From a virus (taxonomy: Duplodnaviria > Caudoviricetes): 56,623 nucleotides of DNA. A program made the translations under genes and the position numbers. The notes under the pieces were generated by a model, which did no database searches, was not told the DNA's origin, and saw only the letters and a list, made by a program, of their open reading frames with translations. The stretch is from the IMG/VR virus record IMGVR_UViG_3300009320_000019, positions 1 to 56,623 of that record, one strand, 5' to 3'. Shown in pieces: positions 13,567 through 40,286 of this stretch (positions are counted from its first letter, which is position 1; each line of letters begins with the position of its first letter).

Positions 13567-13576
13567 AGAGGTAGAT

Positions 13577-20837: not shown

Positions 20838-21023
20838 ATGAACACCCCCAATACAATGGAATATAAAGTAAAGATAAATATTAGTCCACAGGCTAAACTA
20901 CTTCTAAAAGAAATGCCATCTATTGATGAAAAAGATTTAATAAAATGGTTTATTAATCATAGAAAGATATGGGTAGGCGGCGGGGATGTTATTGATTTTC
21001 TAAAAGGAGGGAAAAATGACTGA
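20838..21023 (+). CDS. hypothetical protein
   Basis: 61-aa ORF overlapping next SD. Confidence 0.5.
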   Translation: MNTPNTMEYKVKINISPQAKLLLKEMPSIDEKDLIKWFINHRKIWVGGGDVIDFLKGGKND

Positions 21024-23157
21024 TTTAGTAGATGTATACCCAGGAGATATAATAACTTCTGCAAGAGCAAATGAAATAACTGATAGATTACAACAAGGAA
21101 CAGGTTGTATTACTACTTGTAATATGGCATTTTGTAGTACAGAGCCTATTTGGTTTTGTGAATCAAATGTGTATTTTACAGCTTCATCAGCGGGTGGAGA
21201 TGCAAATATATGTTTTCGTAATACAGGCCTAGGCGATATGAATTTATGTGTTGGTGGCGAAGTAATTGCTACAACATCATGTTTAGGAGATATTGAAGTA
21301 TCTGAAAGGGAATCTATTTTATTTACAGATAATAAACCCAGACTTTATGTTAATTCTGAAACGGCAGATTGCCTTAATTTATTAAATAGTGGAACTGGTG
21401 ATTTTTCTTTATGTGTTTGTGGGGATATTTCTACTACTGGATGTTTTAAGGGAGATACTTGGACAACTTCTGGAGGTGAATGTTTAGTTCAAGCAGGGAA
21501 TGGTATTTTAATTGATTGTGAAAATGATTATTTTTACGTTTGTGATTGTTTCTGGGATAGGTCTAGTTCGCCACCTTATCAAATTTATCCACAAAGTGGA
21601 TATTGTATGTGTGCTTCAAAGATATATGGAACTAATTGTTTGGATTCCCCAACTATTTGTGCTTCTGGGGCAAGTGGATTAGTTTGTGCAGGTTTAGATA
21701 TATGTGCAGCACATTGTGTAGTTGGAGATGAAATTCATGGAACTACATCTTATACTTTGGCAGGGGATACTATTACTTCTTGGACAGATGTAGAAGGATG
21801 TTGGGAAAGTGGTCTAGAAGGATGGGTTTGCCCATGTAGTAATTGTAATGCTTGTAGTGATAAATTTGTTGGAGGTTCTTGTGTATATGGCCCTCTTGTT
21901 TGCGCACAAAGAGCTTTTGTAGGAAATAATAATGCTAATGACCAACTAAGATTATATTATGATTCTAGTAATTATAGTTGTTTATTTACTAATGCCGGGG
22001 GGAGTTTGTTTATTATGCCAAGTTCTGGACAAATTTGTATGTGTGGTTCAAGTTTAAATCACGGAATTAAAATTGAAGATGATAGTGCAACAAATTCAAG
22101 AACATTAATTAAAGGAGATTGTATAACATTTACTTTAGATGGGGCCACTAATGCTTGTATTTTAAATAGTGGATTAACTAAAGGAACAGTTGTTTGTGGA
22201 ACTACTTGTGTTCGGGCCCCGATTACTTGTGGAACTACTTGTGTACGTGGGGGGGTTGTTTGTGGCAACACTTGTGTAGATTCTCCTTCAATTACATTAA
22301 ATACAGTAAATCGTACTTCTTGGCCAGAAGGATTATGGACAAATGATGTAGACCCTTGGATAACTCCATGTAGTTCTTGTTCACCGAGATCAACTTATAG
22401 TTGTGCCACTACTTGTGTGCAAAGTCCAATTGTTTGTGGAACTACCTGCGTAAATACTGCTTGTGTAAAAAGCCCCTCTATTTGTGGAACAATTGTAAGG
22501 GCAGATGCATTCTCTTATGGAAGTTATGATTCTGGTTGTGTAAAAAAATCAGCTTGTGGTATATGCTCTTGTTGGGCAGCAGGAGGGGATGCGTATGCTT
22601 GGCATAATGGTTTATGTTTAATAGAAGGAAGTAATATAACTTTAACAGTTGATTCAAATAATGTAACAATTGCTGGAAGTGCAGCAGGAAATTGGGAGGA
22701 TACCACAGACCCTTATATTTGTCCATGTAATTCATGTAGTCTTTGTGGAACTTGTCATGTGGTTGATTGTCCTAGTGGAACTCCCGCAGGAGATGGTATG
22801 TTCATCAAATTATGTAATGATGATCCGCTTAATGCTGGATGTGTGATGAGATATAATTCTAATAATTTAGAATATGCTTCCAATTCAAATGAAACAAATG
22901 CAAAGGGATTTTTAGTATTGGGTACAGTTAATATAGGTAGTTCCAATCAATGTTGTGCATATTTAACTAATGGAATTTTTAGATGCACAGGGTGGAATTG
23001 GGCAGGGGGAGGATTATTATATTTATCTTCTGGAAATGGACAAATGACACAAACTCGTCCAAGTGGTTCTGGATGTATTGTAAGAATTTTAGGATATGCA
23101 TTAAATGGAGATTCTATTTATTTTGACCCAGATAAAACTTATATAGAGGTAAATTAA
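21016..23157 (+). CDS. Extremely Cys-rich fibre-like virion protein
   Basis: About 65 Cys in 713 aa by manual count; CGTTCV repeats; W..DP(Y/W)IxP joints; C-terminal LYLS..GQMTQTRPSGSG.IVRILGYA domain. Confidence 0.7.
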   Translation: MTDLVDVYPGDIITSARANEITDRLQQGTGCITTCNMAFCSTEPIWFCESNVYFTASSAGGDANICFRNTGLGDMNLCVGGEVIATTSCLGDIEVSERESILFTDNKPRLYVNSETADCLNLLNSGTGDFSLCVCGDISTTGCFKGDTWTTSGGECLVQAGNGILIDCENDYFYVCDCFWDRSSSPPYQIYPQSGYCMCASKIYGTNCLDSPTICASGASGLVCAGLDICAAHCVVGDEIHGTTSYTLAGDTITSWTDVEGCWESGLEGWVCPCSNCNACSDKFVGGSCVYGPLVCAQRAFVGNNNANDQLRLYYDSSNYSCLFTNAGGSLFIMPSSGQICMCGSSLNHGIKIEDDSATNSRTLIKGDCITFTLDGATNACILNSGLTKGTVVCGTTCVRAPITCGTTCVRGGVVCGNTCVDSPSITLNTVNRTSWPEGLWTNDVDPWITPCSSCSPRSTYSCATTCVQSPIVCGTTCVNTACVKSPSICGTIVRADAFSYGSYDSGCVKKSACGICSCWAAGGDAYAWHNGLCLIEGSNITLTVDSNNVTIAGSAAGNWEDTTDPYICPCNSCSLCGTCHVVDCPSGTPAGDGMFIKLCNDDPLNAGCVMRYNSNNLEYASNSNETNAKGFLVLGTVNIGSSNQCCAYLTNGIFRCTGWNWAGGGLLYLSSGNGQMTQTRPSGSGCIVRILGYALNGDSIYFDPDKTYIEVN

Positions 23158-24977
23158 TGGCAGAACCTAAATGGTGCATTAATAGTATGGATGATTCTAC
23201 GTCTAGGGTTCAAGGAATTTTTTGTGATAGTATTGATAAAATAAATAGTCAATCTTCTGCCGAAATTTTTGCGGATACTTGTGCCGTTTCCGATGTCACT
23301 TATAATTCTGCAACTGTGGGAGTTAGAAATATTTCTGGAACCATAGATCAGAAAGGAGTACTTTTTGCTAATTATCCTGATGCCCCTGGATTGGGAAGTT
23401 GTATTTGTCATTGTTATAGTGATACTTCAAATATTTCTGACCAATCGTGGAATGTAGAGGGATTAATTTCTTCCCATCATTATAATGTAAGGGCGTATGC
23501 TTGTAGAAATGCGGAAGATATAGATTATGGAAACACTTTAGGTTTTATTACTTCGTATCAATCTTTATCTGTGAATACATGTGAACCAACAAATAAATGT
23601 TATACGTGTTTTAGTAGTGGGGGTCATAGCATATCAGGAGTAATAGATCAAAAAGGGTTTTGTATAGCTCTATATCCAAATGATCCCAATGTAAATCCCA
23701 TGGCATCAGTTTATATAAACACTTCTAGTACAGCTTCTTTCACATTGGGAATTGATGGCCTTGTACCAGATAATTGTTATAATATTAGGGCATACGTTTG
23801 TAAATCCGGTGTGGAGAAGGCGTTTGGAGAATTAAAATATGTGGACCTTCCATGTATAACTGCAGAAACTTATACTCCTTCTGGGATTACAGCTACAGAT
23901 GCTACTATCGGTGTAGAAGATATAACCACTGAAGGTGGAACAATAGATAAAAAAGGTGTACTTATTGCTAATTATCCTACAACCCCTGAGATAGGAAATT
24001 GTATAGTACATTGTTATGAAGATACCGCAGCGACTGTCGACAAAACTTGGTGTGCAACTAGTTTAACTCCTAATGTTCATTATAATGTAAGGGCGTATGC
24101 TTGTGATTCTGGGCAAGATTTTGATTATGGGAGTACTTTAGATTTTACTACCTTGTCTACAGGATCCGGTACTTGGAGTGCGGGGGGGACATTACATGCT
24201 AGTAGGTCAGGATTAGGGGGGGCAGGAACAACTCCCTTATCCTTTGGAGGGGAGAATGGCAATCCCCTTTCTTCAACTGAATGTTATAGATGGACTACAC
24301 ATGCTTGGGGTACAAGAGGTAATTTAAATGTTGCAAGATATATGATGGGGGGTTCTGGAGTTACTTCAGAATATTTATCTTTTGGGGGATATAATGGGAG
24401 TAGTAATTTTGCTACAACAGAAAAAACATCAAATGCAGGAACTACATGGAGTACTAGAGATAATTTAAATACTGCAAGACGTTTATTAGGTGGGGCAGGG
24501 AATACTTCTAGTACCCTTGCTGTTGGAGGATATAATGGATCATATTTATCTTCAACAGAAGAGTTTCATGGAAGTAGTTGGAGTACTGGCGGTAGTCTAA
24601 ATATAGCAAAATTAGGTTTAGAAGTGATGGGCAATGCAGGGGCAGCTATTGCTACTGGGGGCAGATATACTTCTAGTTATTCAAATACCACAGAAAAGTA
24701 TAATGGATCTAATTGGAGTTCGGTGGCAAATTTAAATACTGCAAGAGCATATCTTGCTGGGCATAGTTTAGGAAGTAATTGTTATTTAGTTTTTGGAGGA
24801 TATAATGGAAGTGTTCTTGCCAATACTGAAGAATATAATTGTGTATCTGATGTATGGGGAACACAAGGAGGTTTATTAACCGTAAGGCAGAAAGTAGGGG
24901 GTGCAAAATGTTTAGCTTTTGGGGGGAGCGGCTCCACTGGATTACCTTTAAGTAGCACCGAAGAATATATTCCTTAG
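23157..24977 (+). CDS. Virion protein: three FN3-like Cys-substituted repeats + Kelch beta-propeller
   Basis: IDQKG...YNVRAYAC...YG repeats; GG-Y...STEEY...W..GxLNxAR Kelch repeats. Confidence 0.8.
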   Translation: MAEPKWCINSMDDSTSRVQGIFCDSIDKINSQSSAEIFADTCAVSDVTYNSATVGVRNISGTIDQKGVLFANYPDAPGLGSCICHCYSDTSNISDQSWNVEGLISSHHYNVRAYACRNAEDIDYGNTLGFITSYQSLSVNTCEPTNKCYTCFSSGGHSISGVIDQKGFCIALYPNDPNVNPMASVYINTSSTASFTLGIDGLVPDNCYNIRAYVCKSGVEKAFGELKYVDLPCITAETYTPSGITATDATIGVEDITTEGGTIDKKGVLIANYPTTPEIGNCIVHCYEDTAATVDKTWCATSLTPNVHYNVRAYACDSGQDFDYGSTLDFTTLSTGSGTWSAGGTLHASRSGLGGAGTTPLSFGGENGNPLSSTECYRWTTHAWGTRGNLNVARYMMGGSGVTSEYLSFGGYNGSSNFATTEKTSNAGTTWSTRDNLNTARRLLGGAGNTSSTLAVGGYNGSYLSSTEEFHGSSWSTGGSLNIAKLGLEVMGNAGAAIATGGRYTSSYSNTTEKYNGSNWSSVANLNTARAYLAGHSLGSNCYLVFGGYNGSVLANTEEYNCVSDVWGTQGGLLTVRQKVGGAKCLAFGGSGSTGLPLSSTEEYIP

Positions 24978-24986
24978 GAGGAAAAA

Positions 24987-25691
24987 ATGAAAAAGTATCA
25001 AAAAGAATTAAAAAAATATAATGAAAAATTAACTAAAGATTTGGAAAAGATTCAAATAGTTTCTGATAAAGATTTAAAATTATTAGACAGAAATATGAGT
25101 GTAATTAAACATAGTATGAGGTATGCTCAAATATTTAGGACTGATACTGAGGCGAGAGTAAGTATACTTAATGATAGTAGGCACCCTACTCCAGATTCTA
25201 AATATTGGCAAAGTATAAGAGAAATGAAGGTTCATGCAGACCAATTGTTTTATCTTAATTTTGATTATAAAGAAAAAATTATAGATCTGGATGAATTAAT
25301 GAGTAAACTTAAAAAAAATAAATATAACAATAAATTTGATAAACTTCGTGACGAAAATAAACTTGAACGAATAAATTATGAATTAATTCAGATGTCTTTG
25401 ACTGCAAAAGATAGAATAAGAGAGATTGATATGTGGTCAACAATTATAAAAGAACTTAAACCAAATATGGAATATAGTAATCAAGATGTGAATGAACATC
25501 AATTGTTTAGTTATTTACAAAAATTTAGTAAATTATTAGTACATGCTACAGATGAAGAAAGAAAGGACTTGGGGGGGTTATTATATACTACTTTAAAAAC
25601 TATAGAAGAAAGAGGATTAAAAAATAAATTTTTAAAGGGATTAGATAAAAAAACTTTAAGTTTTTTAGAACAGAATAAATTATTAAAATAA
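24987..25691 (+). CDS. Helical protein, possible fibre assembly partner
   Basis: Follows Kelch gene; FRTDTE..S.LND..HPTPDSKYWQ; function inferred from position. Confidence 0.55.
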   Translation: MKKYQKELKKYNEKLTKDLEKIQIVSDKDLKLLDRNMSVIKHSMRYAQIFRTDTEARVSILNDSRHPTPDSKYWQSIREMKVHADQLFYLNFDYKEKIIDLDELMSKLKKNKYNNKFDKLRDENKLERINYELIQMSLTAKDRIREIDMWSTIIKELKPNMEYSNQDVNEHQLFSYLQKFSKLLVHATDEERKDLGGLLYTTLKTIEERGLKNKFLKGLDKKTLSFLEQNKLLK

Positions 25692-25741
25692 AAATTCATA
25701 CTTGCCTGTCTGTTTGAAAGTATGAACTAAGGTAGATTACA

Positions 25742-27109
25742 ATGGGAAGATACGATACTGACAGGTATGACTATGGAAAGTATGATCACTATAATCAGCA
25801 GTATTTAGATTCTATTAGCTATCTTAAAAAAATAGTACAAAAAACCATTACTTCTTTCTCTAGTTTAATAGACGAATATCAAAGAGGGATAAGATCTTTT
25901 TCTTATCTTAAAAGTATAGAACAAAATACATTAACTTCTATTAGTTACCTTAAAAAAGTAGAACAAGAAACAATAACTTCATTTAGTTCCATATTAGAAG
26001 CAGAACAACAAACAATAACAAGCATAAGTTATCTTAAAAAAGAAGTTTCTCCTATTTTGACTTCATATTCTAGAATTGTTAAAAGAGAACAAATAACAAG
26101 TAATGAATATATTCTAAAAACCCACGACCCAGATATACAGGGATCACATGCAGCAATTATTAAAGAAGAAACCAAAACAAATACTTCTTTTTCAGTATTA
26201 TGGAAAGAACATTCAAATGATTTAACATCTATTAGTTACCTTAAGAAAATAAAAGTAGATTTAAAATTAACATCTAGGTCTCATCTTGGGATAAGAAAAA
26301 CTATATATGGGCATGCTTATCTTAAGAAAATAGATTTACAAAAGACAATAAATTCTATTAATTACATCCAAGAATCAGAAACAAACACAATTGCTAGTTT
26401 ATCTTATTTAAAAAGAATTTTCCAAGAATCTTTAACTACTAAAGAATATCTTAAAAAGATAGACTTACAAAAAACTATAACTTCTATAAGTTATACAAAA
26501 GAGGCAGAATCCAATACTATTACAAGTATCTCTTATTTAAAGAAAGTTCAAGATACAACAATAGATACAATTGCTTATTTAAAAGAAGAAGAAGAAAAAT
26601 TATTAACTAGTATTTCTTATTTCAAAAAAGTAGTAGAGATGGATTATCCAACTTCTATTGATTATCTTAAAAAAGTAGAACAAGAAACAATAACTTCTTT
26701 AAATTATTTAACAAATGAATGGAAAAGAAGAATTAGGGCATTTTCTTATATTAGAAGAATAGGATCCCCTACACTTAATTCCATTGAATATATTTTAAAA
26801 TCATACACTCAAACTATTGGGTCAATTTCTTATATAAAGGAAGAGGAAGAAGATACAATAAAATCTATTTATTATCTGAAGAAGGTAGAAACAAGTAATA
26901 TAAATACGATAAATTATATTAGAGAAGAAGAGACAGATACTATCACAACAGTATCTTATCTAACTGAGCCTGCAGAAGGTTCAGCCGCACCAACATGGTC
27001 AAATGCTGATGTGATTAGACCTACTTCAATAGATTTAAAAAATATTGTGCCTATACTTTCAAAATCAAAAGAAGTTGCACCAAAATTCACAAGAGGGAGG
27101 TTAACATAG
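25742..27109 (+). CDS. Repeat protein (about 28 x 14-aa TITSISYLKK units)
   Basis: Periodicity visible in translation. Confidence 0.75.
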   Translation: MGRYDTDRYDYGKYDHYNQQYLDSISYLKKIVQKTITSFSSLIDEYQRGIRSFSYLKSIEQNTLTSISYLKKVEQETITSFSSILEAEQQTITSISYLKKEVSPILTSYSRIVKREQITSNEYILKTHDPDIQGSHAAIIKEETKTNTSFSVLWKEHSNDLTSISYLKKIKVDLKLTSRSHLGIRKTIYGHAYLKKIDLQKTINSINYIQESETNTIASLSYLKRIFQESLTTKEYLKKIDLQKTITSISYTKEAESNTITSISYLKKVQDTTIDTIAYLKEEEEKLLTSISYFKKVVEMDYPTSIDYLKKVEQETITSLNYLTNEWKRRIRAFSYIRRIGSPTLNSIEYILKSYTQTIGSISYIKEEEEDTIKSIYYLKKVETSNINTINYIREEETDTITTVSYLTEPAEGSAAPTWSNADVIRPTSIDLKNIVPILSKSKEVAPKFTRGRLT

Positions 27110-27112
27110 AAA

Positions 27113-27991
27113 ATGGGAATTTTATTAGAATGGCAAGCGATTAGTACAAGCGAATCTGATTATGATCAAGTAGCAGTTTATAGAGCAACAAGTGAGGATG
27201 GAACTTATGTTCATTTAGTTACTCAAGATATTAGTGATACTACTTATTATGATGCAGATGGAACTAGTTCTAGTTGGTATAAATTAAAATGGTATGATTC
27301 AACCGAAGCAGTATTAAGTGAATTTTCTGAAGCTTTAAAAGGCGGCGAATTTTATGGATATTGTTCTGTTGAAGATGTTAGAGATATTAGTAGTATCTCG
27401 AGTAGTCAACTAAACGACACAGAAGTTGCTAAATTAATTATATTTGCAAGCAATCAAATGAATGCTGAAATGCAGATATATCACGAAGACGAAGCAATAG
27501 GGTATATTGATTCAACTAAAGAAAATACAATAGATGGTTCAAATACAACTTTTTATACAAAACATTATCCAATTGGAGATTTAAACAATGATTATAACAT
27601 AGATGAAAATGATATAGAAGTTTATCAAATCGATTCGGATTCTGTAAGAACGCAATTAACTGTTAGTTCAGTTACTGCAAGTACTGGTAAATTTGTATTA
27701 AGTTCAGCGCCAAATAATGTAGAACTTGAAATTACTTATAAAAAAGCACAATTAAATTTAGATAGGCCATCTTTACATCCATTAGTAAAAACAGCATGTG
27801 CTTTATTAGCAAGTGCGTGGGGATTTGGAAAATTAAATATTGGAAAAGCACCTAGATTTAAGATGGGGAATCAAACTATTTATAGGGATACTCAGGCACA
27901 TAGAGAAATGCTTAAAAGATATAATGAAATCTTAATGGGTATAAATGATAGACAATCTACAGATATGGTAGAAAATTTGGGGAGTTTTTAG
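27113..27991 (+). CDS. Head-tail adaptor with N-terminal FN3-like domain
   Basis: VYRATSEDGTY...YYD..G....WYK; YCSVEDVR; VKTACALLA. Confidence 0.7.
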   Translation: MGILLEWQAISTSESDYDQVAVYRATSEDGTYVHLVTQDISDTTYYDADGTSSSWYKLKWYDSTEAVLSEFSEALKGGEFYGYCSVEDVRDISSISSSQLNDTEVAKLIIFASNQMNAEMQIYHEDEAIGYIDSTKENTIDGSNTTFYTKHYPIGDLNNDYNIDENDIEVYQIDSDSVRTQLTVSSVTASTGKFVLSSAPNNVELEITYKKAQLNLDRPSLHPLVKTACALLASAWGFGKLNIGKAPRFKMGNQTIYRDTQAHREMLKRYNEILMGINDRQSTDMVENLGSF

Positions 27992-28363
27992 ATGTCAAAT
28001 ACAATAGTAGACGCACCAGAAATGCAGGATGAAATAATTGACGAATTTGGTTACTCAATTACTTTAAGAACAGTATCTAAAGCTTTTAGTGCTGATGATG
28101 AGTATGGCGAAGCAACTGAAACCTTAACAGATTATTCCACTACTGCGATGGTTCAAACTTTGACTGAAGAAGATGATGAAGTAAAAGAAGGAATATTTGA
28201 AAAAGGAACTACAGTATTCTTTTTTAAATCATCAGACTCAGCAAAAATTGTTCGTGGTTCAAGGATTAATTATCTAAATGAATGGTATGAAATTTCAAGT
28301 GTTACTAAAAGTACTGTATCTGGCGCAGAGCATAGATTAAGTGCGTATGTCAAAAAGATATGA
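27992..28363 (+). CDS. Head closure (stopper) protein
   Basis: Position and size; DEYGE, beta-barrel pattern. Confidence 0.7.
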   Translation: MSNTIVDAPEMQDEIIDEFGYSITLRTVSKAFSADDEYGEATETLTDYSTTAMVQTLTEEDDEVKEGIFEKGTTVFFFKSSDSAKIVRGSRINYLNEWYEISSVTKSTVSGAEHRLSAYVKKI

Positions 28364-28459
28364 TAATCTTATAAATACGAAAAAATAAAATAAACATATA
28401 GGCTGGTAGTCTATAAATACAATTGGAGTCGTCTCCAAGAAACGTTCCTTGTAGGAAAA

Positions 28460-28921
28460 ATGGCACAACCAACAACAATCAATAAAGCTACAGCTACAAC
28501 TGATGCATTTAAATATTTCTATTGGGTAGTTTCTGCTATAGAAGACCCTTATTCTGGTACTAGAACCAAATGGTGGTATTCTACTTGGCCAGAAGAAAAA
28601 CTTGATTCAAAAAGTGATTATCCTATTGGGATAATAAGTTCACCATCATTAATTTGGGAAAAATCTACTTTTAGGAAAAAGAAATTAAAAGGAACAATTT
28701 CTTTTGAAATTTATTCAACTAAATCAAGCGAAGCAGACGATCTTACTCAAAAGATAAAAAATGCAATGGCAGACAATAGAAGTTCTGCTTATGCGGTTAA
28801 CATAAGAAATATAAAATTAGACAGCACAAATGTTGATATGGCAGTTCAACATGGAAAAATAAGGTTACATCCAAGGTCGGTAGACTTTAGTTTTGAAATA
28901 GTAGTAACAGGTGATTTATAA
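28460..28921 (+). CDS. Tail terminator-like protein
   Basis: YPIGII...FEIYS; position. Confidence 0.6.
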   Translation: MAQPTTINKATATTDAFKYFYWVVSAIEDPYSGTRTKWWYSTWPEEKLDSKSDYPIGIISSPSLIWEKSTFRKKKLKGTISFEIYSTKSSEADDLTQKIKNAMADNRSSAYAVNIRNIKLDSTNVDMAVQHGKIRLHPRSVDFSFEIVVTGDL

Positions 28922-29406: not shown

Positions 29407-29423
29407 ATTAGGAGGTATAAAAA

Positions 29424-30035: not shown

Positions 30036-30045
30036 AGAGGTTAAA

Positions 30046-30942: not shown

Positions 30943-32249
30943 TGGATATTAAAAAACTTATTGTAATTATAGAAACTAAATTGAAGCAACGAGGTAAACT
31001 TAAACGGTTTGGTGTGGATGTTGATAAGGTGCGTGGTGCCTTGAAGGGAGCAGGATTAAATGCAAAAACATTTTTTACTGCCGCAGGTAAGCGTACACAA
31101 TTAGGAAAGGCAGCACAAGAGGCAGGATATAATTTAACTACTTTATCTCATAAACTGGGGGAGTTGGGTGCTAAATCTATTAAAGTAACCACTAGAGGGA
31201 TGGGCGAAATGGGCGATGTGGTTACTAAAGGTGGCCATAAGTTTAATATATTTAAAAATATAATAACTAATACAGGTGAGTCATTAGAACTTTATTCAAA
31301 AAAATTTGGGGGGGCAATGTCTAAGTTAGAGGCTTTAAGTGATGGGGATGATAGTCTTCAAGAAGTGCAAAAAAATACTAAAAGTTATGGGGAGGCTGCT
31401 ATAAAGGGTGGAAAAAAGACTAGATGGTTTAGGGGTGAAATGCTTGGTTTAATGTTTATGACTAGAGCATTATCTATGAGATTTGGTGGTTTAGTAAAAG
31501 CCCAGATGAAACTTTTCGGGGTTACAGGTATGTTATCTGCAATGTGGACCTCTGTTTTTGCACCATTAATGGCATATTTAGTTCCAATAATTGCAGATTT
31601 AATTTCATCGTTTATTGATTTACCGGGCCCTATTAAAGGAATAATTTCAGTTTTTATTGTTTTAGCGTGGGCATTTTTAAGTCTTCTTGTTATTATAACT
31701 ATGTTTAAAATAAGTGGATTAGCAGCGATAAAAGCTGCATTTCTGGAATCAATGTTACCTGCACTTGCTTGGTTGGGAGTAATTTTATTAGCAGTTGGGG
31801 CAGTATGGTTATTTTATAAAGCATTCAAGGCATTCCAAGATGGAGATATTATAAGGAGTATTATTTATGGATTAATGGGTATAGCCGCTGCATTTTTAGT
31901 AGTGGCCGCTGCCGTAGCTTTAGCAACTGGTGGTGCAAATATTATTGGTGGATTAACAGCGATAGGAATAGCTGGAGGGGCACTTTTGGTAGGGGCAGGA
32001 GTGCTAGGGGCAATGAAGATGGGGGGGAAAAAAGATGATTTTATTTGGCGAAGCGGTCAAGGTGCAGTAAGTATTAGTCCAGATGATGATATAATTGGAA
32101 CTAAAGAAGGACTTGGTGGAGCAGGTGGAACTATTAATTTAAATGTAGATCTCCATGGTGGTGCTTTTATGGATGAAAGTAGTATAGATTTATTAGCAGA
32201 AAAAATCAAAGGTCATTTAATTGGTGATCTAAGGAGGTTAGGATTATGA
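30942..32249 (+). CDS. Tape measure protein (short, TM-rich)
   Basis: Ala/Gly helical, hydrophobic segments, DFIWR...SPDD.IIGTK C-terminus. Confidence 0.75.
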   Translation: MDIKKLIVIIETKLKQRGKLKRFGVDVDKVRGALKGAGLNAKTFFTAAGKRTQLGKAAQEAGYNLTTLSHKLGELGAKSIKVTTRGMGEMGDVVTKGGHKFNIFKNIITNTGESLELYSKKFGGAMSKLEALSDGDDSLQEVQKNTKSYGEAAIKGGKKTRWFRGEMLGLMFMTRALSMRFGGLVKAQMKLFGVTGMLSAMWTSVFAPLMAYLVPIIADLISSFIDLPGPIKGIISVFIVLAWAFLSLLVIITMFKISGLAAIKAAFLESMLPALAWLGVILLAVGAVWLFYKAFKAFQDGDIIRSIIYGLMGIAAAFLVVAAAVALATGGANIIGGLTAIGIAGGALLVGAGVLGAMKMGGKKDDFIWRSGQGAVSISPDDDIIGTKEGLGGAGGTINLNVDLHGGAFMDESSIDLLAEKIKGHLIGDLRRLGL

Positions 32250-32713
32250 CAATAGTAGTTTTAAATAATGATTATTATTATGTAAGAGTTTGGACAAAAG
32301 ATGTAAAAGAAATATTAAAAAATAGTGTTCCAACTAAGTATGATAATCCAATAGTGTCTGGTGGTGGAGCTGAAGACCCTACAGAGCCAGATAAAAAAAT
32401 TATGGATATGAAATCTTTTACTTGGACCTATACAATAATCGGCAAAATAGATATAGATTCAAAATGGGTAAATAATACAACTTCTGGAAGTTCACTTTCT
32501 GATGCAAAAGAAGTAAAGGATAATTTAAAAAAAATAGCTTACACAGGTGGGGTAGTAAATCTTTATTATGAGATGACTGAAGTTACAGGAATAATAACTG
32601 ATTTACAAATAGCCGAAATATCTAGAGATAGTTCTGGCCCAGCATTGAATGATTACCCAACAGAATATGATGTTAAAATAGTATTTATGAAAGCAAGTAA
32701 TATGAATGATTAG
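32246..32713 (+). CDS. Distal tail-like protein
   Basis: Position after TMP, 155 aa. Confidence 0.55.
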   Translation: MTIVVLNNDYYYVRVWTKDVKEILKNSVPTKYDNPIVSGGGAEDPTEPDKKIMDMKSFTWTYTIIGKIDIDSKWVNNTTSGSSLSDAKEVKDNLKKIAYTGGVVNLYYEMTEVTGIITDLQIAEISRDSSGPALNDYPTEYDVKIVFMKASNMND

Positions 32714-32718
32714 AAAAA

Positions 32719-35511
32719 ATGACATTAGGAACAGATGGGAAATATAAATTTTATATTGTAAAGAGAGATGATGAGCCTGCAGAAGATGAAAATGTCTTTG
32801 AGGATTATACTACTCATGTTCTTAGTTGGAATTTCGATATTGGTTTAAATAAATTAACTAATTTTTCTTCTATTTTTATAGATATAGATTATGGGGATGA
32901 ATATTTAAGTGAAGGTAATTTTATTTATGGATTTTCTGGAACTAATTTAATTGAAAAAATAGAAATAACTTCTGTAGATTTTCATACTTATAGAAGATAT
33001 AAAGTAACTGGAGTTAGGTCTACTGGTGTAATAGAAAGTAACAAAATGGACTTACAAAGTTCAATTACTCCATCTAGAACTTATAAAAATGAAAATCCCT
33101 CAACTATTTTTGAAAATTCTAGTTGTGGTATTTTATATAGTGATGCTGGGAATAAGATAATTGAGGGGGATTTATCTGATTTGTCAAATTTAGACCATAA
33201 TATAAAAATAGATAAAGATATAAGAATTCGAGCAATAACTCACGCAACACAAGTAATGGGGGCAGAATGGACTCTTTCTCAATATAGTACAGGCGGGGAT
33301 ATTTGTGTAGATTGTATTTGTATAGCAGATAGAATTGGAAGTTCTTCTTCACAACACACTTTTTATTTCGCAGGGGATAATATGAATATTTATCCTTCAA
33401 CTTCTAAAAAAGATTCTACTTTAATGGGAAATCATGTTATGATAAGTGGGTCAGGACTTGGAGGAAACGAAATAAAATCAGAAATGCATAATTCTTCTTG
33501 TGATATTACATACACTGATGGGTGTTTTGATACTTGGTTAGACGAAGATATAACTGCAGAATTATATAAAATAAGTATAAATGCTTCTGTAGGTACGTGG
33601 GAGGCAGGAGATACTCTTTATGGTTCAACTACTAAACTAAAAGCAACTATAGCTAAGGTATATGATGGATCTACTTTTGGTATAGCATCTCCTTGTTCAC
33701 AAACATATACGGCAACTAAAATTTTTGGACCAGAATATGTTTATAATTTAACAAAAGATAGTAGTACTTATTATACTATAACTGGGTTTGCAGCGCCTTG
33801 TTTTAAAACAAAGGGGGGCAATTCTGAAATTGCCAGACCTTATACATGTATTAAATTAGGTACTGAATGTATAATTGGTTGTTTTGATGGAGATTGTTTT
33901 GTTCCTCAAGTAAATTGTGGGTTTAATGGAACAGTTACTTCTGGTGCTACAAATATTTTGTGTGATCAATTAGGTAATTTTATTACTAATAAAGGGATAA
34001 AGGTATATGAAGCAGGAGTTACCACAGCATTAGTTACTAATATGGATACATCTGCAACTGCCCATATTTTGGATGTAATTTGTGAATCTAAATTGACATT
34101 AGATGCAAATATTTTTCCATCTGCTGGAGATGAATATTGTATTTGGCAAGAATTTTTAGGAAGGCCTGCAAATGAGGCCACAACTCATAAAAAAGGGGAA
34201 GATATTTCTTATATTGAAGATGTTTGGTATGAAATGGCTAATTGGTCTGGAAATCATGATGGTTCTACTTATTCTGGCCCACAATATCTTTGTATTAATA
34301 CTGATTCTACTTCTGGATTTGGTGAGGGAGATACCAATGAAAAATATTCTATTTATGTGGGTTCAGAAGAAATAGGTTATTGTGATAGATTAAGTAGTGG
34401 ATTTGTGATATGTAATAGAAATTTTGATGAAGCTTATGCACATGGAGATTGTATTAGAATTTCTCAAGCGAATTGTAATTCAACTTCTGCTTTTAGACCT
34501 GCTAATCCACAACCAGGGTCTTGTATTGCTACTTATGGAGTTAAAGCAGTTTCAGTTAGTGATAATTTTGCACAAAATAGAGATTCTTTAGATAAAAAAG
34601 CCCAAGCATTGATAGGTGCAAGAGGTGGAGATTATTTTAAAGTTAGTGAAGTTAAAGTTGATTGCCCTTTTGATTTTTGGGATGATGTTAATTTAGGGGA
34701 TGCTGTTTGTGTATGCTGTGGCGCGAGTTTACAAACTCCTGAAGAATGTTATAGGGTAACTGGATTTAAATATTCTTTTGATACTAGAAGCCCGCCATAT
34801 TTAAAAGTTTATTTAAATGATAAAGATACCAGAACTTGGCCTGCAGGCTCTAATGATTTTGTTGATGACTATACTGAACAAACAAGCAAAGAAAGAAACC
34901 AGCCATTAAAAAATGTGGAAGACGAAAGAGTTTTAGATTCTTTAAAAGAATTTTCGGTGGGTGGAAAAGAAATAACGGGAGTTAAAGATCCAGTAAGTCC
35001 AGATTCTGCAGTTACTAAACAATGGGTAGAATCAAATTTTACCTCTAGTGGGGGGGGTTCTGGAACAAATCTATGGGGAAATGGTGATGATCCTTATATT
35101 TATCCTTTAAATTCATGTGCAATTTGTATAAGTAATTGCATTGTTCCTGCAGTAGATGGGAGTTATAGCCTTGGTGGTACTGGCCTTTGGTGGGGTTCTA
35201 TTTCTGGACAAAAAATGGAATCCAATTATAGTTGGGTAGGAACAACTGGGGGAACAGAAACAGGAACAATTTATGCTCAAAAATATTGTGTAAATAGTCA
35301 ATATGCATTACCCAATACAGATGGCACAGAAGGACAAATAATGTGTACAGATGGGGCTGGAAATGTAACTTGGGTAAGTGAAGCAGGGGGATTATGGGAA
35401 AGCCCAGGGGGGAGTGTAATTTGTCCTATTGGAAGCGAAATTTATGTGTGTGCATATTCAGTAGAAATATCTGATTGTTTTAAATTACCAGTAGGAAATG
35501 ATATGTATTAG
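32719..35511 (+). CDS. Tail tip/hub protein with Cys-rich insertions
   Basis: Hub-like N-terminus, LGDAV OB-like part, ITGVKDPVSPDSAVTKQWV fibre motif; about 35 Cys. Confidence 0.7.
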   Translation: MTLGTDGKYKFYIVKRDDEPAEDENVFEDYTTHVLSWNFDIGLNKLTNFSSIFIDIDYGDEYLSEGNFIYGFSGTNLIEKIEITSVDFHTYRRYKVTGVRSTGVIESNKMDLQSSITPSRTYKNENPSTIFENSSCGILYSDAGNKIIEGDLSDLSNLDHNIKIDKDIRIRAITHATQVMGAEWTLSQYSTGGDICVDCICIADRIGSSSSQHTFYFAGDNMNIYPSTSKKDSTLMGNHVMISGSGLGGNEIKSEMHNSSCDITYTDGCFDTWLDEDITAELYKISINASVGTWEAGDTLYGSTTKLKATIAKVYDGSTFGIASPCSQTYTATKIFGPEYVYNLTKDSSTYYTITGFAAPCFKTKGGNSEIARPYTCIKLGTECIIGCFDGDCFVPQVNCGFNGTVTSGATNILCDQLGNFITNKGIKVYEAGVTTALVTNMDTSATAHILDVICESKLTLDANIFPSAGDEYCIWQEFLGRPANEATTHKKGEDISYIEDVWYEMANWSGNHDGSTYSGPQYLCINTDSTSGFGEGDTNEKYSIYVGSEEIGYCDRLSSGFVICNRNFDEAYAHGDCIRISQANCNSTSAFRPANPQPGSCIATYGVKAVSVSDNFAQNRDSLDKKAQALIGARGGDYFKVSEVKVDCPFDFWDDVNLGDAVCVCCGASLQTPEECYRVTGFKYSFDTRSPPYLKVYLNDKDTRTWPAGSNDFVDDYTEQTSKERNQPLKNVEDERVLDSLKEFSVGGKEITGVKDPVSPDSAVTKQWVESNFTSSGGGSGTNLWGNGDDPYIYPLNSCAICISNCIVPAVDGSYSLGGTGLWWGSISGQKMESNYSWVGTTGGTETGTIYAQKYCVNSQYALPNTDGTEGQIMCTDGAGNVTWVSEAGGLWESPGGSVICPIGSEIYVCAYSVEISDCFKLPVGNDMY

Positions 35512-35525
35512 AGGAATAGAAAAAA

Positions 35526-38500
35526 ATGCCGACACAAAGTAGAACTTCGGAAAATACTCAATCAGATCAATCCCCTACAATAAACGGATGGTCCTGGTCA
35601 TCTAATTCTAATTATTTTCTAGCATCTCAAAGTTGGGATGGTGATACTTCTTATGTAGAAAGTGGATATGTAAGAATTTGGGATTGGGGATTTAATATCC
35701 CGGAGGGGGTAAGGATAGATGATATTTTTATAAATAATAATGTAATGGGACATTGTAGCCCTTTTGATCCTTTGAATCCTTATGGAGATACTGAACTTTG
35801 TGATTATAGGATAAGATTATATTTTAAAGGTGATGGTTGTTCTAGTTATACTTATATTGGGGGTACTTATATAGAATATCCTTCAAACACAAATAGAACT
35901 TGGATGAGAAATTGGGGGGATTATTGTACCATTGATGAAATAAATTGTGAATGTTGGGGAATAGCAATTAGTGTTGAAGGAAAATTGACTGATTCTTCAC
36001 ATGCTAATCATGTTTATTTTTGTAGATCATCAAAGTTAAAAGTGAATGTAGTTTATACGGAAACTGGCGTAGAAACTTGGGATTTACATGATTTTAATTC
36101 TAATGGACACAGTATTTGTAGTGGAGTTTGTGAAATTATTGCAGATGATATAGATGCTAAAGGAATTGTTTGGTGTGAATATCCAGACGTTCCTTATCGT
36201 AGTTCTTATATGGGCAGAGATTGTGATACAACTGGAAATCAAGGTAATCAAGAATATGGGGCCACAAATTTGTCTTGTGATAATGATTTTTATGGGGAAT
36301 TGGATGTCACAAAATGTTACAGAATCAGGGCATTTATATGTGATTCTGGAAATGATACTTGGTATGGTACTCTTAGGGATGCGTGGACTTGTGGTCCAAG
36401 GGCAGATACTGTAGATTTATATGCCCCTACAACAAGTTCTTTATGGTCAGGTGTTTGTAATGTTGATGAAGGGTCCCCTAGCACAATAGATAAAAGGGGA
36501 GTAGTATTATGTAGAAATGATGGTTCTGATCCCCCTACACCAAATTGTTACGAATGGAAAGTTGAAGAAAGTACCACATCTACTTCTGATTGGGAGACAG
36601 AAATTACTGGACTGCCTGCAGGTACCGAATTTCAAGTAAGGGGGTATGTATGTAGGAGTGGATATCAGTATGGCTTTGGGGATGTTCAAATTGGTTCAAC
36701 TACTTCTACTGCAATAAGTATTACTACTTGTGAACCTGATCAAGCATATTATACTTATTTTAGGGGTGGTGGAAAAGATATTACTGGAACAATCACAAGG
36801 AAAGGATTTTATGTTGCAGATTATGATAAGGATCCAATAAATTATCCAATTGGGTGTGTATACGTGGATACTAGTGACATTAGTAATTTTCATTATTATT
36901 TTACACAAGTACATGGAAATATAGTTCCGGGTGGCCATTATAATGTCCGGGCATTTGCTTGTAATTATGGTATTTCTGTAGGTTGGGGGGCAATAGAGGA
37001 TGTTACCCTTTCTGAAATAACTGCAGAAACCTGTGATGCTACAAATATTGGGGAGACAACAGTAACTGTGGGAGTTAGAGATATTACAACAGCTTGTGGG
37101 GCAATAGATAAAAAAGGAGTAGTATTTTGTTTGTATCCTTTTACCCCATCGTTAACTAACAATATTAAACATGAATATGAAGATACTTCAAGTACTGCAA
37201 ATAAATCTTGGAATTCAACAGGATTAGGATTTGCAACTCAATATAATATTAGGGCGTATGCTTGTATGTCTGGTGGAGATCATGATATAGATTATGGAGA
37301 TACTTGTACTTTTACAACTAATCCTCTGCCTTTTGAGGTTACAACTAGAATTCCAGATCAAAGATGGTTTACTAGTATAAGGGGGGGTGGGATTGATATT
37401 AGTGGAGGAGGTTCTTCTACTTTAGATGAAAAAGGAGTTTTATTTAAAGAAGGAGAAACAACTCCTACATATACAGATTATGATTTTAGGAATTGTATAG
37501 AAGATGGAGATTTAACAGATTATCATATTACTACTGCATTTCTAAGCCCAGAAACTGTGTATTCTATTAGGGCATATATTTGTGACAATAGTATAGTAGC
37601 ATATGGGAATACAGGATTATATATTTCAGGAGGGATCTGTGCAGATACTGTTGATCCTTTTTCTGTTGAAATGACTAAAGCATGTGCAGGTGTTGAAAAT
37701 ATTGGAACAAATGTATATCTTCCTGATAGTGCTATTAGTGATAAAGGAGTTTTATTGTGTTTAAATGACGGTTCGAATGCGCCAACTTTAGAACCTGGTG
37801 GATATGCAGATATAGAACATCATGCTACAAATAATAGGGATGATGAATGTTGGCAATTTACAGGTTTAACTCCAGAAACTTCATATCAAGTTAGATCTTA
37901 TGTTTGTAAAGATGGTATAATGATAGATTATGGAGATACTTGTACTTTTACAACTCTTGCAGCTACATTTACTATATATACTGGATGGGGAATGTGTAGA
38001 AATGTAGGGGGTAATTTTGAAAAATATCAGGTATGTGGACATGGTTCTTATCCACCCCTTTGTAATGCTTCAAATAATTGGGGACAATATACTGGTGCGG
38101 ATACAGATTATGGAATTTATATTTCAGATGATGCTTTTACTTTGACTTCTGCATTTCAGGCAGGGCACGAAGCTGTAATGACAATGATTCATTATGAGGG
38201 GTGGGAAGGCTGGCATGCAAATATTCAATGGTGCAACCCAGACGGAGATTTAATTCAAGAAAAAACAATAGAAACTATATCTGATGATACTTGGGAATTT
38301 GATTATTTAGGTATTTATCCAGGCAAAATTGATATGAACGGAACATATACTATAAACGCATTTGCAATACAAGCAGGATGTACCCCATCTATGGGGACTA
38401 AGACTTTTACTGTTTCAAATGTTCCTACTATTACTCAGTTGACTTCTGATAAACGAGGGTATATATGGGTTACTGGAGATTATTTAGCTTTTGTGGATGC

Positions 38501-38834
38501 AAATTGTGTAGTCCATTGTATTTGTGGGGGTAATCAAGGAGGTTATATAGACACATCTAAAGCAGGGACTATTTGGGTAGAAGAATCTGAGGGTTATTTA
38601 AGTTGTTCATTACAATATATTACTGAATCTGGGTATCATTATAAAACATTAAATGGAGATTGTAATGGGTGGGAAGGATGGAATAACATGCCAGAATGGA
38701 CATATTCTGATTGTAAGGGATTTACATGGGTTGAAACAGAATGTAATAAACATAATTTATTTTTTATAAATAGTCAAGGTAAAAAATTTAGATTATCAAA
38801 TGGTGCGGGGCCATTAGGTTCAGATGAATATTAA
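35526..38834 (+). CDS. Large Cys-rich FN3-repeat tail/adhesin protein
   Basis: Six (D/R)KG...Y-x-(I/V)R-x-(Y/F)-x-C...(Y/W/F)G repeats; about 47 Cys in 1102 aa. Confidence 0.75.
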   Translation: MPTQSRTSENTQSDQSPTINGWSWSSNSNYFLASQSWDGDTSYVESGYVRIWDWGFNIPEGVRIDDIFINNNVMGHCSPFDPLNPYGDTELCDYRIRLYFKGDGCSSYTYIGGTYIEYPSNTNRTWMRNWGDYCTIDEINCECWGIAISVEGKLTDSSHANHVYFCRSSKLKVNVVYTETGVETWDLHDFNSNGHSICSGVCEIIADDIDAKGIVWCEYPDVPYRSSYMGRDCDTTGNQGNQEYGATNLSCDNDFYGELDVTKCYRIRAFICDSGNDTWYGTLRDAWTCGPRADTVDLYAPTTSSLWSGVCNVDEGSPSTIDKRGVVLCRNDGSDPPTPNCYEWKVEESTTSTSDWETEITGLPAGTEFQVRGYVCRSGYQYGFGDVQIGSTTSTAISITTCEPDQAYYTYFRGGGKDITGTITRKGFYVADYDKDPINYPIGCVYVDTSDISNFHYYFTQVHGNIVPGGHYNVRAFACNYGISVGWGAIEDVTLSEITAETCDATNIGETTVTVGVRDITTACGAIDKKGVVFCLYPFTPSLTNNIKHEYEDTSSTANKSWNSTGLGFATQYNIRAYACMSGGDHDIDYGDTCTFTTNPLPFEVTTRIPDQRWFTSIRGGGIDISGGGSSTLDEKGVLFKEGETTPTYTDYDFRNCIEDGDLTDYHITTAFLSPETVYSIRAYICDNSIVAYGNTGLYISGGICADTVDPFSVEMTKACAGVENIGTNVYLPDSAISDKGVLLCLNDGSNAPTLEPGGYADIEHHATNNRDDECWQFTGLTPETSYQVRSYVCKDGIMIDYGDTCTFTTLAATFTIYTGWGMCRNVGGNFEKYQVCGHGSYPPLCNASNNWGQYTGADTDYGIYISDDAFTLTSAFQAGHEAVMTMIHYEGWEGWHANIQWCNPDGDLIQEKTIETISDDTWEFDYLGIYPGKIDMNGTYTINAFAIQAGCTPSMGTKTFTVSNVPTITQLTSDKRGYIWVTGDYLAFVDANCVVHCICGGNQGGYIDTSKAGTIWVEESEGYLSCSLQYITESGYHYKTLNGDCNGWEGWNNMPEWTYSDCKGFTWVETECNKHNLFFINSQGKKFRLSNGAGPLGSDEY

Positions 38835-39201
38835 AATAAATTCGGTTATTTATATCCGAAATCCGGAAATTGAAAGAATAAAGGCTATAGAAAGACATTT
38901 ATATGTTTTAAGGAAAGAGGCTAAGGAATTTTATAAAAATGGGAATCAAGAAACTGCTTTAAAATTTTTAAAATATATTTATAAAAATGTTAAGGAAAGT
39001 ATAATAGATAATGCTTTTAAAAATGATGTGTTAAGAAATCAAATGTTTGAAGGAACTGATAATTTTCCTAGAATTCCAGTTAAAAAAGATAATTCTATAA
39101 AATCTAAAATTTATTTAAAAGATTATTATGAGGAATTCGAATTTAAATTTCCTGATGGGAGAATCGAAAAAATGAAGAGGGCATATATAGCAGATGAATA
39201 G
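38824..39201 (+). CDS. hypothetical protein
   Basis: 125-aa ORF overlapping previous stop. Confidence 0.6.
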   Translation: MNIKINSVIYIRNPEIERIKAIERHLYVLRKEAKEFYKNGNQETALKFLKYIYKNVKESIIDNAFKNDVLRNQMFEGTDNFPRIPVKKDNSIKSKIYLKDYYEEFEFKFPDGRIEKMKRAYIADE

Positions 39202-39242
39202 AAAAGTTTAATAACTATCCTAACTTATAAATATTAAAACAG

Positions 39243-40286
39243 GTGAAACCTAATATGGAAAAGAAACAACAAGAAATAAAACAAAAAGAACCTAAAAAAT
39301 ATGCTTTGATTATCAACGGAGGCATAGGAAAAGAATTAGCTGCCACTAGTTTAGTAAGGTGGTTAAAAGAAAAAGAGCCAGATAGTACAATTTATACTAT
39401 TTCTGGATACCCAGATGTATTTCTAAATAATCCTTCAGTTAAAAGGAATTTACATTTTAATACACCCTATCTTGAAGATGATTATATTAATGATGCAGAT
39501 ATTAGATCTGGAGAACCTTATCAGTTTGAAGAATATAGATTAAATGAAAAACATTTAAATGAATTATGGCCACAATCATATAGATTTTCTTTAACTGAAT
39601 ATAATAAAAATATTTATCCAGAAATTTGTGTTACAAAAAGAGAAGAAAGAAATGTAGAAAATGCAATTAATGCAATAAAAACAGGACCTAATATTCCTAA
39701 AGACTTAAATTTTGATAATATAATAATGGTACAATTTGAAGGTGGTCCAATTATGGATCCTAGAACCCATCAACCAATTAAACATGAATCTCAAAGGAAT
39801 TTAAAAAAAGAAGTAGCTGAAGTGATTATTAGAGAAATAAATAAAGCAGGGTATATTCCATTTTTATATAAACAAGGACAACAATATAGCACCCAAAAAA
39901 CAATCACTCCACAATGGCCATTAAGACTTTGGATGGTATTTGCTAAAAGAGTTAAAGCATATATTGGGATTGATAGTTCTGGAATGCATATAGCAGCATC
40001 TTGGAAAAAGCCAGGGTTAGTATTTTGGCAACAAACTCATTATAAAAATTTAGGATATCCTTGTATGAAACATTTATGGCTAGAAGGCGAATTACCTATG
40101 TCTAACAGACCAAGAGTTGGATATATGGATTCAGTTCCAGGAGGAGTATGGGAAGATCCTCACGACGATGAATGTAGAAATTGGGATGTAGATGATATAA
40201 TGAAAACTGTTAGAGAATTTTTAAAAGACCTAAAAGCAGGAAATCCTCCAACTGGCCCAGAGAAACATAAACAAAAAAGTAACTAA
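39243..40286 (+). CDS. GT9-like (GT-B) glycosyltransferase
   Basis: GGIGKELAAT, YPDVFLNNP, IGIDSSGMHIAA, LGY. Confidence 0.8.
   Translation: MKPNMEKKQQEIKQKEPKKYALIINGGIGKELAATSLVRWLKEKEPDSTIYTISGYPDVFLNNPSVKRNLHFNTPYLEDDYINDADIRSGEPYQFEEYRLNEKHLNELWPQSYRFSLTEYNKNIYPEICVTKREERNVENAINAIKTGPNIPKDLNFDNIIMVQFEGGPIMDPRTHQPIKHESQRNLKKEVAEVIIREINKAGYIPFLYKQGQQYSTQKTITPQWPLRLWMVFAKRVKAYIGIDSSGMHIAASWKKPGLVFWQQTHYKNLGYPCMKHLWLEGELPMSNRPRVGYMDSVPGGVWEDPHDDECRNWDVDDIMKTVREFLKDLKAGNPPTGPEKHKQKSN

Follow-up and report, generated by a model that had tools for sequence, protein, structure and literature searches.

Cysteine-loaded proteins beside a GT9-like glycosyltransferase gene in a probable archaeal-type tailed virus

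According to its published description, Agrobacterium phage Milano carries a virion-wide disulfide network that gives the particle mechanical and thermal robustness, and its Cys content, 1.4% of the proteome and 2.4% of the structural proteins, was presented as exceptional (PMC10491603). In cyanophage Pam3 the fibres are described as disulfide-linked to the baseplate and as released by dithiothreitol (PMC9942802). As regards glycosylation, the adhesins AIDA-I and TibA are reported to be hyperglycosylated in the cytoplasm by the bacterial autotransporter heptosyltransferases (BAHTs) AAH and TibC, with a GT9-like GT-B glycosyltransferase (GT) gene lying beside that of the repetitive, β-rich surface protein (PMC4358343). 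Here, we describe the virus record IMGVR_UViG_3300009320_000019, analysed as a window of 56,623 nt (about 30% G+C) that comprises the full record and the entire virus. It encodes four proteins with 3.6–9.1% Cys each (P0001–P0004), followed by a GT9-like GT (P0005). We propose that the four proteins are outward-projecting parts of the particle of a tailed virus. The explanation that we put first, to which we would give somewhat less than an even chance, is that disulfides harden these parts after release and that the GT acts on the same proteins.

The capsid protein has its best match in the phage collection in an Altiarchaeum virus (26% identity, E = 3e-21), and the MCM helicase has 19 matches in this collection, all in archaeal viruses, of which Methanocaldococcus fervens tailed virus 1 is the closest (30%). 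Because of these two results, the sequence is probably that of an archaeal-type tailed virus. The open reading frames (ORFs) at issue are listed below; L-numbers in the text denote fetched GT loci.

21016..23157, + strand: P0001, 713 aa, 65 Cys; 11-residue repeat arrays and a cement-like C-terminal part of about 225 aa; candidate head fibre
23157..24977, + strand: P0002, 606 aa, 22 Cys; three repeats resembling fibronectin type III (FN3) domains, then a Kelch-type β-propeller half
32719..35511, + strand: P0003, 930 aa, 35 Cys; candidate Tal-like tail-tip/baseplate hub
35526..38834, + strand: P0004, 1102 aa, 47 Cys; six FN3-like repeats between N- and C-terminal domains
38824..39201, + strand: 125-aa ORF between P0004 and the GT, 0 Cys, no family match
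39243..40286, + strand: P0005, GT9-like GT-B glycosyltransferase, 347 aa, 3 Cys; identified from an AlphaFold2 (AF2) model and Foldseek

Cysteine content and substitution pattern

The background set was formed by 79 non-overlapping ORFs of at least 50 aa in the window. Pooled, P0001–P0004 hold 169 Cys in 3351 aa (5.04%), compared with 161 in 14,078 aa (1.14%) for the other 75 ORFs, a content far above that of any phage so far described as cysteine-rich. The manual counts of a sequence-only reading of this DNA were reproduced exactly: 65/713 in P0001 (9.1%), 18/330 in the N-terminal half of P0002 (22/606 for the whole ORF), 35/930 in P0003 (3.8%) and 47/1102 in P0004 (4.3%), with a single Cys in the major capsid protein (MCP) and none in the ORF at 25742-27109 as Cys-poor controls. 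The enrichment thus spares the capsid shell, and in P0002 it is confined to one domain, the FN3-like half holding 18 Cys in 330 aa and the Kelch half four in 276 aa. The same reading had called all four products tail proteins; this stands for P0003 and P0004 and fails for P0001 and P0002, which sit head-proximal in the module. It had also seen no zinc-finger or haem spacing, and we noticed none in the sequences or in the table of Cys spacings, no dedicated CxxCH search having been made. Codon reassignment as a source of apparent Cys was considered and rejected: no tRNA gene was found in the 56,623-nt window, TGT is rare in its other genes and the Cys-rich neighbours of related GT genes occur on contigs of widely differing base composition (30–57% GC).

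The FN3-like repeats give the clearest view of how the Cys residues are placed. The three repeats of P0002 and the six of P0004 share 26–53% identity and six invariant columns, one of which is the Cys that follows RAY[AIV] in 9/9 repeats. We searched a profile of the nine repeats against 1.84 billion representatives, which gave 11,728 proteins at E ≤ 0.001, and took column statistics from 1747 domains of the 148 best-scoring other proteins (median 1.22% Cys, maximum 2.82%). The consensus given by the sequence-only reading, RAYAT, agrees with that of the family, YYVRAYATN, and so does the proposed Thr-to-Cys substitution: the column after RAY[AIV] holds T in 995 domains, I in 277, V in 159, a gap in 122, K in 46, S in 45 and C in 4, all four of the latter coming from shifted alignments. 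The Pfam fn3 profile matches P0004 at E = 0.0029, below the cutoff, and three members of the profile family pass it; we assign the P0002 and P0004 repeats to the fibronectin type III clan on these sequence grounds. The domain is thus the same and is likewise found in long tandem arrays, but 1648 of the 1747 family domains have 0–2 Cys, whereas the window repeats have 2–8 each. Moreover, the buried Cys that the family carries in GVCWS (71%) is absent from the window repeats and is not among these residues.

Among the 42 Cys that fall in FN3 match columns, 22 lie at columns that are polar in the family, 17 at intermediate columns and three at hydrophobic columns. That 39/42 occupy polar or intermediate columns is what one would expect if Cys had been introduced into a fold already in place. 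At the cells occupied by Cys, Ser and Thr together have a family frequency of 0.46, whereas the average is 0.31 (permutation p = 0.03; leaving out the invariant column 81 gives p = 0.06). By this indirect measure the Cys would mostly be surface substitutions, often for hydroxyl residues.

A similar overwriting may be seen in P0001. Its 11-residue unit, T-C-V-x-S-P-I-x-C-G-T, forms two short arrays in which Cys is periodic at lag 11 (z = 3.4), and the same type of unit is common to P0006, P0008 and L094. The protein also contains three copies of the motif W..DP(Y/W)I.PC.SC. One of them, DPYICPCNSC (window 22700-22790, residues ~560–580), aligns with ..DEYYHLTSAQ.. of the Cys-poor relative P0007, His, Thr and Gln being replaced by Cys, so that the alignment reads as Cys written over an older motif; similar copies lie at residues ~262–280 and ~441–455 of P0001 and near residue 790 of P0003. 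Relatives of P0001 number only three, all weak. Its last ~225 residues resemble structures of the Atlas with a template-modelling (TM) score by row of 0.85–0.87, in clusters partly annotated as the phage cement protein PF09956. The AF2 model of this part is unusable (confidence score pLDDT 31), which leaves the Atlas match as the source of the cement likeness. Because of this likeness and of its place beside the head genes, P0001 is probably a head fibre, an assignment to be taken as a lead only. In the same way, and likewise as a lead only, P0003 is probably a Tal-like tail tip, since it resembles PF06605 Prophage_tail clusters in the Atlas (TM by row 0.6–0.78).

The P0003 homologues found in L085, L086, L089, L091 and L092 contain 3.5–9.1% Cys, and those of the metagenome contigs L085, L086 and L089, at 25–27% identity, contain 3.5–6.6% each. 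Yet, in the four-way alignment of P0003 with the latter three none of the 66 invariant columns is a Cys, and P0003 Cys residues are matched by Cys at 7/26, 11/27 and 2/21 aligned positions, for an overall identity of 23–27%. Across all pairs the conservation of Cys (0.37) is below that of Trp (0.52) and Gly (0.49). A high Cys content therefore appears to be retained while the positions drift. The conservation of Cys among relatives known from Milano was not seen here, the relatives being far more distant than those of Milano. Such fluid positions fit folding that is independent of Cys.

Disulfide hardening is ranked first because the Cys appear to lie at the surface of folds that do not need them, because the proteins would face oxygenated water and because of the match to Milano and Pam3. 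The lineage would have swapped Thr, Ser, Val or Ile at the surface of β-rich modules for Cys on a large scale, in a head fibre or decoration protein (P0001), an FN3-plus-Kelch protein (P0002), a Tal-like tail tip (P0003) and an FN3-rich fibre (P0004). These proteins would fold in the reducing cytoplasm without need of Cys, where the GT9-like enzyme and the other GTs of the virus may modify them, as TibC and AAH do with β-helical adhesins. After lysis, in oxygenated water, neighbouring thiols would form disulfides within and between chains and the fibres would harden. Several observations weigh against these disulfides, which we infer from the pattern described above. No conserved Cys pair was found in the P0003 homologues or in the FN3-like repeats, and among the nine repeats the invariant Cys has no invariant partner. 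The number of Cys is odd in 4/9 FN3-like repeats and in 3/4 proteins by hand count, which implies that some thiols have no partner in their own chain and either remain unpaired or bond to another chain. A search of the non-overlapping ORFs for CxxC motifs, without profiles and with about 27 small ORFs never compared with Pfam, gave nothing resembling a thioredoxin-fold or Erv-type oxidase. Finally, disulfides alone give no reason for the presence, in several lineages, of a GT9-like gene behind Cys-rich proteins that are unrelated to one another.

The odd counts and the unpaired invariant Cys would be easier to understand if the Cys stayed reduced, forming a thiol surface that either binds metal ions or sulfide minerals or becomes covalently attached to host surface proteins by thiol–disulfide exchange. 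Clusters of Cys are indeed frequent in P0001 (seven CxC, seven CxxC and seven CxxxC spacings, and CPCxxC), P0001, L085 and L086 share the conserved motif (W/Y)ICPC(S)xC, and the nearest capsid relative infects a groundwater archaeon. We nevertheless consider this explanation improbable, the least credible of those discussed here: the Cys show neither a constant ligand geometry nor a recognized metal-site motif, their positions drift between homologues and the conserved GT is left without a role. In addition, dense free thiols would oxidize in oxygenated seawater, the sole habitat hint. This hint, a weak one, comes from a single DNA run labelled 'marine metagenome', in which seven small contigs are identical to parts of 32719-40286 (10 of 30 bins covered) and which may be the source sample; no RNA runs carrying this stretch are listed.

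The GT9-like enzyme and its Cys-rich neighbours

The AF2 model of P0005 (pLDDT 86.2) starts with a helix (residues 2–15) followed by a Rossmann strand (residues 19–24). Its top Foldseek matches in the PDB are 3tov, a GT9 protein (E = 3e-10), 1psw (WaaF), 2h1h (WaaC) and 4rb4 (TibC), with TM scores of 0.5–0.6; its viral structural look-alikes are uncharacterized. P0005 itself has no Pfam match at E ≤ 0.01. Besides its own record it has 33 relatives at E ≤ 0.001, eight of them with PF01075; on rescanning the aligned relatives, 12/25 match PF01075 (best E = 4.4e-8), and the family profile matches 1psw at E = 0.0025 over 62 positions. The GT9-type GT-B fold that had been proposed for P0005 from its sequence is thus supported by the predicted model and by its relatives.

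In the first loop of the GT family, G26, G27, G29 and K30 are conserved at ≥90% (G-G-x-G-K), with no conserved acidic residue beside them. GT9 enzymes have a catalytic Gly-Asp in the first N-lobe loop, as in WaaC, and G-G-x-G-K may occupy the equivalent site. For TibC, Asp-110 is reported as the catalytic residue (PMC4358343). No gene for ADP-heptose synthesis was seen among the ORFs scanned, which were not all of those in the window. Seven of nine close homologues carry a four-Cys motif in the C-lobe (C-P-x-P-M-C ... C-P-x4-C, alignment columns ~310–345), of which P0005 keeps one Cys (residues ~281–312, pLDDT 57–63); the motif is lost in P0017 too.

We examined the neighbourhoods of the GT in loci fetched with the close-homologue alignment (80 of 140 confirmed in IMG/VR and 80 of 244 confirmed in metagenomes), all of them picked by GT presence, with no control fibres chosen irrespective of the GT. 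Of the 80 IMG/VR loci, 25 contain an ORF of ≥250 aa whose Cys content is ≥3%. The 3% level is attained by 17% of the 105 ORFs that lie on the GT strand and end no more than 1.5 kb upstream of the GT, compared with 4.4% of 518 other ORFs. When GTs are clustered at 70% identity, an ORF with at least 3% Cys is found upstream in 7/18 clusters and downstream in 2/19. GT clusters at 60% identity were then ranked by similarity to P0005, with Cys taken as the maximum over members and ORFs within 4 kb, a measure that inflates the figures, most for large clusters. By this measure, six of the seven nearest clusters with a same-strand upstream ORF of at least 200 aa reach 3% Cys and five reach 5%, the Cys-rich proteins of the six having 3.5–13%; the seventh has a truncated piece of 216 aa, in L082. 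Eight of the next 16 clusters reach 3% and eight stay below, and neither of the last two reaches it. The expected co-occurrence of this GT with high-Cys fibres is therefore seen in the nearest clade and breaks down in distant clades, in which the GT also follows Cys-poor fibres: a 540-aa protein without Cys in L019/L020, a 2034-aa protein with 0.3% in L007 and, in the cultured Pelagibacter phage HTVC111P (L162), the repeat fibre gp52 (1.5%), directly followed by the GT gp53. The GT family is tied to fibre genes generally, and its nearest clade to Cys-rich ones.

The arrangement around the GT is also conserved. As the sequence-only reading had noted, P0005 follows the Cys-rich block after one short ORF, and small ORFs of 105–136 aa occupy the equivalent place in L085, L086, L092 and L158. 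The order P0003-like, P0004-C-like, small ORF, GT is retained in relatives at 25–30% protein identity; in L085 it reads a 436-aa Cys-free protein, a P0003-like protein of 1011 aa (6.0% Cys), a protein of 342 aa (5.8%), a small ORF and the GT. The C-terminal domain of P0004 is common to the proteins directly upstream of the GT in L086 and L089–L092, every relative found has the GT as the 3′-terminal gene of the module, and the GT often overlaps the upstream gene (L094, L097–99 and HTVC111P). The upstream Cys-rich partners form at least five groups without BLAST similarity to each other. The protein directly upstream of the GT in L001 (2-796, contig of 57% GC) has 13.3% Cys and no detectable relatives; neither has that of L097 (663-2543, 626 aa, 10.1% in L097–99, 42% GC). 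The partner in L094 (9.8%) carries the P0001-type repeat, and another BLAST-unrelated group is found in L158, L137 and L035. The RAY.C and 11-residue motifs were not found in the 80 IMG/VR GT loci; the 11-residue type is present in L094 and L158. Aquatic phage fibres of a large YadA-like family, with the 15-residue repeat G-G-x-x-N-T-A-S-x-x-x-S-T-V-G, lie directly upstream of the GT in L053 (6182-9940), L078 (8144-9931) and L162 (6551-8986). In the L053 fibre the Cys fall in variable repeat positions, with a period of 30 residues (z = 9.2); over its 59 repeats, position 4 is Cys in 21 and Ser in 19, and position 8 is Ser in 43 and Cys in 15. We also carried out a reverse search with the fibre C-terminus, the N-termini being too diverse to serve as a probe, which gave 36 confirmed loci, 34 of them with a fibre ORF. 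After deduplication, the median Cys content is 3.9% for the 15 fibres with a GT in the locus and about 3% (1.5–5.0) for the 14 without (one-sided Mann–Whitney p = 0.03, ignoring relatedness, and with some of the 'without' contigs carrying a GT elsewhere).

This association could mean that the Cys are acceptor sites. The G-G-x-G-K clade, perhaps with the GT2 enzymes of the virus, would S-glycosylate fibre thiols in the reducing cytoplasm, producing a dense, glycosidase-proof coat with its thiols capped against oxidation, and unrelated fibre families of aquatic and archaeal viruses would have converged on 5–13% Cys. The Cys-rich upstream proteins in six of the seven nearest clusters, the unrelatedness and spread in GC content of the Cys-rich partners, the excess of Cys at family Ser/Thr columns, the alternation of Ser and Cys in L053 and the higher Cys of GT-bearing loci within one fibre family all fit this proposal, as would the placing of G-G-x-G-K at the catalytic site of GT9 enzymes, if the two are indeed structurally equivalent. 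However, the acceptor atom, if there is one, need not be sulfur. We know of no GT9 enzyme that glycosylates Cys, S-glycosyltransferases of the SunS type being GT2/GT-A enzymes. Ser and Thr are abundant in all of these proteins, which makes O-linkage the simpler guess, the distant GT clusters follow fibres with 0–2% Cys (8/16 below 3%), fibres with 3–5% Cys occur without a GT in the locus, and the cluster figures are inflated by taking maxima. TibC is reported to modify Ser only (PMC4358343). S-glycosylation is therefore, in our opinion, quite unlikely.

On the other hand, the GT might have no link with the fibres at all. Cargo genes are often located after fibre genes, and P0005 could be a moron at such a site that modifies the host envelope, for instance for superinfection exclusion, the Cys being an independent trait with any of the roles considered here. 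Its best PDB matches include lipopolysaccharide (LPS) heptosyltransferases, the HTVC111P GT sits between fibre and lysis genes, and in distant clades the neighbours are commonly Cys-poor. Four facts speak for a closer tie to the fibres: the place beside P0003/P0004-like genes is retained at 25–44% protein identity, with frequent overlap of the upstream gene; the excess of Cys-rich neighbours is upstream and not downstream (7/18 versus 2/19 clusters); an archaeal host would have no LPS; and the close clade is all but missing from cellular genomes, the patterns used having given one weak locus, in a Bacteroidota metagenome-assembled genome, among 185,579 species genomes. We regard such a moron as unlikely.

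Other glycosyltransferases and the rest of the genome

Apart from P0005, the genome encodes further GTs, at least four GT genes in all. The others and the remaining landmarks of the window are the following.

6405..9249, − strand: GT block of four overlapping genes, GT2-type at both ends (6405-7199 and 8608-9249)
13541-15250, + strand: ATP-dependent DNA ligase plus LAGLIDADG ORF, between the portal and scaffold-like genes
16731..17675, + strand: HK97-type MCP, 1 Cys
18299..20092, + strand: 597-aa two-domain GT, GT2-like N-half and GT1/GT4-like C-half, between the head genes and P0001
52703..54730, − strand: full-length MCM helicase (Pfam MCM E = 7e-57, NCBIfam MCM E = 1e-110)

Relatives of the C-half of the two-domain GT (33–40% identity) lie 2–3 kb upstream of the GT9-like gene in the distant phage loci L134–L156, which suggests that the GT9-like and GT1/GT4-like genes belong to a conserved multi-GT set. 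In the block at 6405..9249 the two end genes give matches to PF00535 (E = 8e-7 and 1e-9) and Anp1 (E = 2e-11). The product of 8608-9249 also shows a weak match (E = 6e-4) to procollagen galactosyltransferase, a protein-modifying GT. The two genes in the middle match no family.

The virus encodes a large terminase (TerL), a portal and the HK97-type MCP, together with a Cas4-like nuclease. P0002 matches Kelch_1 (E = 2e-6) and phrog_27227 (E = 2e-28). The ORF at 13541-15250 joins PF01068 (E = 6e-8) to LAGLIDADG_3 and also matches the phrog_4645 endonuclease, and it may represent an intein or the insertion of a homing endonuclease. At the left genome end (184-765, − strand) lies an ORF of 193 aa, whose product has an Api92-like ferredoxin-like domain (PF18406, E = 6e-9) and weakly matches OrfB_IS605. 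A scan of cellular genomes with the MCM in search of a host gave no match. No IMG/VR relatives were confirmed with P0001, TerL, P0005 alone, P0004 or the P0003 alignment, and a word-based search with P0003 gave no match.

Comparison with known systems

Our literature search yielded no report that links Cys-rich fibres to a phage GT9 enzyme. Should the thiols carry sugars, protein glycosylation would gain a new type, a hyper-S-glycosylation with no precedent in a structural protein or in a virus. If disulfides are formed, this would be the most extreme redox hardening of a virus particle, reached despite folding in a reducing cytoplasm. The GT9-like G-G-x-G-K clade beside a fibre gene could serve as a genomic marker for such viruses, and one FN3 repeat with one GT makes a simple testable pair under either explanation.

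SunS and ThuS, which act on glycocins, add sugar to Cys in the cytoplasm from a nucleotide sugar, as S-glycosylation of the fibres would require. However, they are GT2/GT-A enzymes that modify a small peptide at one or two Cys, whereas P0005 is GT-B in its predicted fold, and the GT2 proteins of the window gave no match to SunS-type entries among PDB sequences. The Tenebrio antifreeze β-helix, with its T-C-T-x-S-x-x-C repeat and two Cys per turn, resembles the T-C-V-x-S-P-I-x-C of P0001. It is a secreted protein with a period of 12 and another Cys spacing, whereas the period of P0001 is 11, and there is no detectable homology between the two.

The GT of the window adjoins fibre genes much as TibC and AAH adjoin their adhesins, and by analogy the fibre is a candidate substrate, which would here be a virion protein. 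The four-Cys C-lobe motif of 7/9 P0005 homologues is reminiscent of the iron finger reported for TibC, again as an analogy only. The BAHTs are described with an N-terminal β-barrel, whereas the P0005 model has none, and TibC is reported to modify Ser, not Cys (PMC4358343). P0005 is not a BAHT in the strict sense, because it lacks the barrel and keeps only one Cys of the C-lobe motif.

The closest parallels to disulfide hardening, which we tentatively prefer, remain the two phages named at the outset. Pam3, as described, is an aquatic phage with redox-sensitive, disulfide-held fibres, like those that we picture for this virus; it uses a few defined Cys at one interface, whereas here there seems to be mass substitution along whole fibres (PMC9942802). 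Milano and the virus of the window are both tailed viruses with Cys enriched in structural proteins. The Milano report describes the involvement of the MCP, sheath and collar, conservation of the Cys among close relatives and a Cys content of 2.4% in the structural proteins (PMC10491603). Here, by contrast, the shell is spared, the positions drift and a GT is linked, and the Cys content is 3.6–9.1% in P0001–P0004 and 10–13% in relatives.

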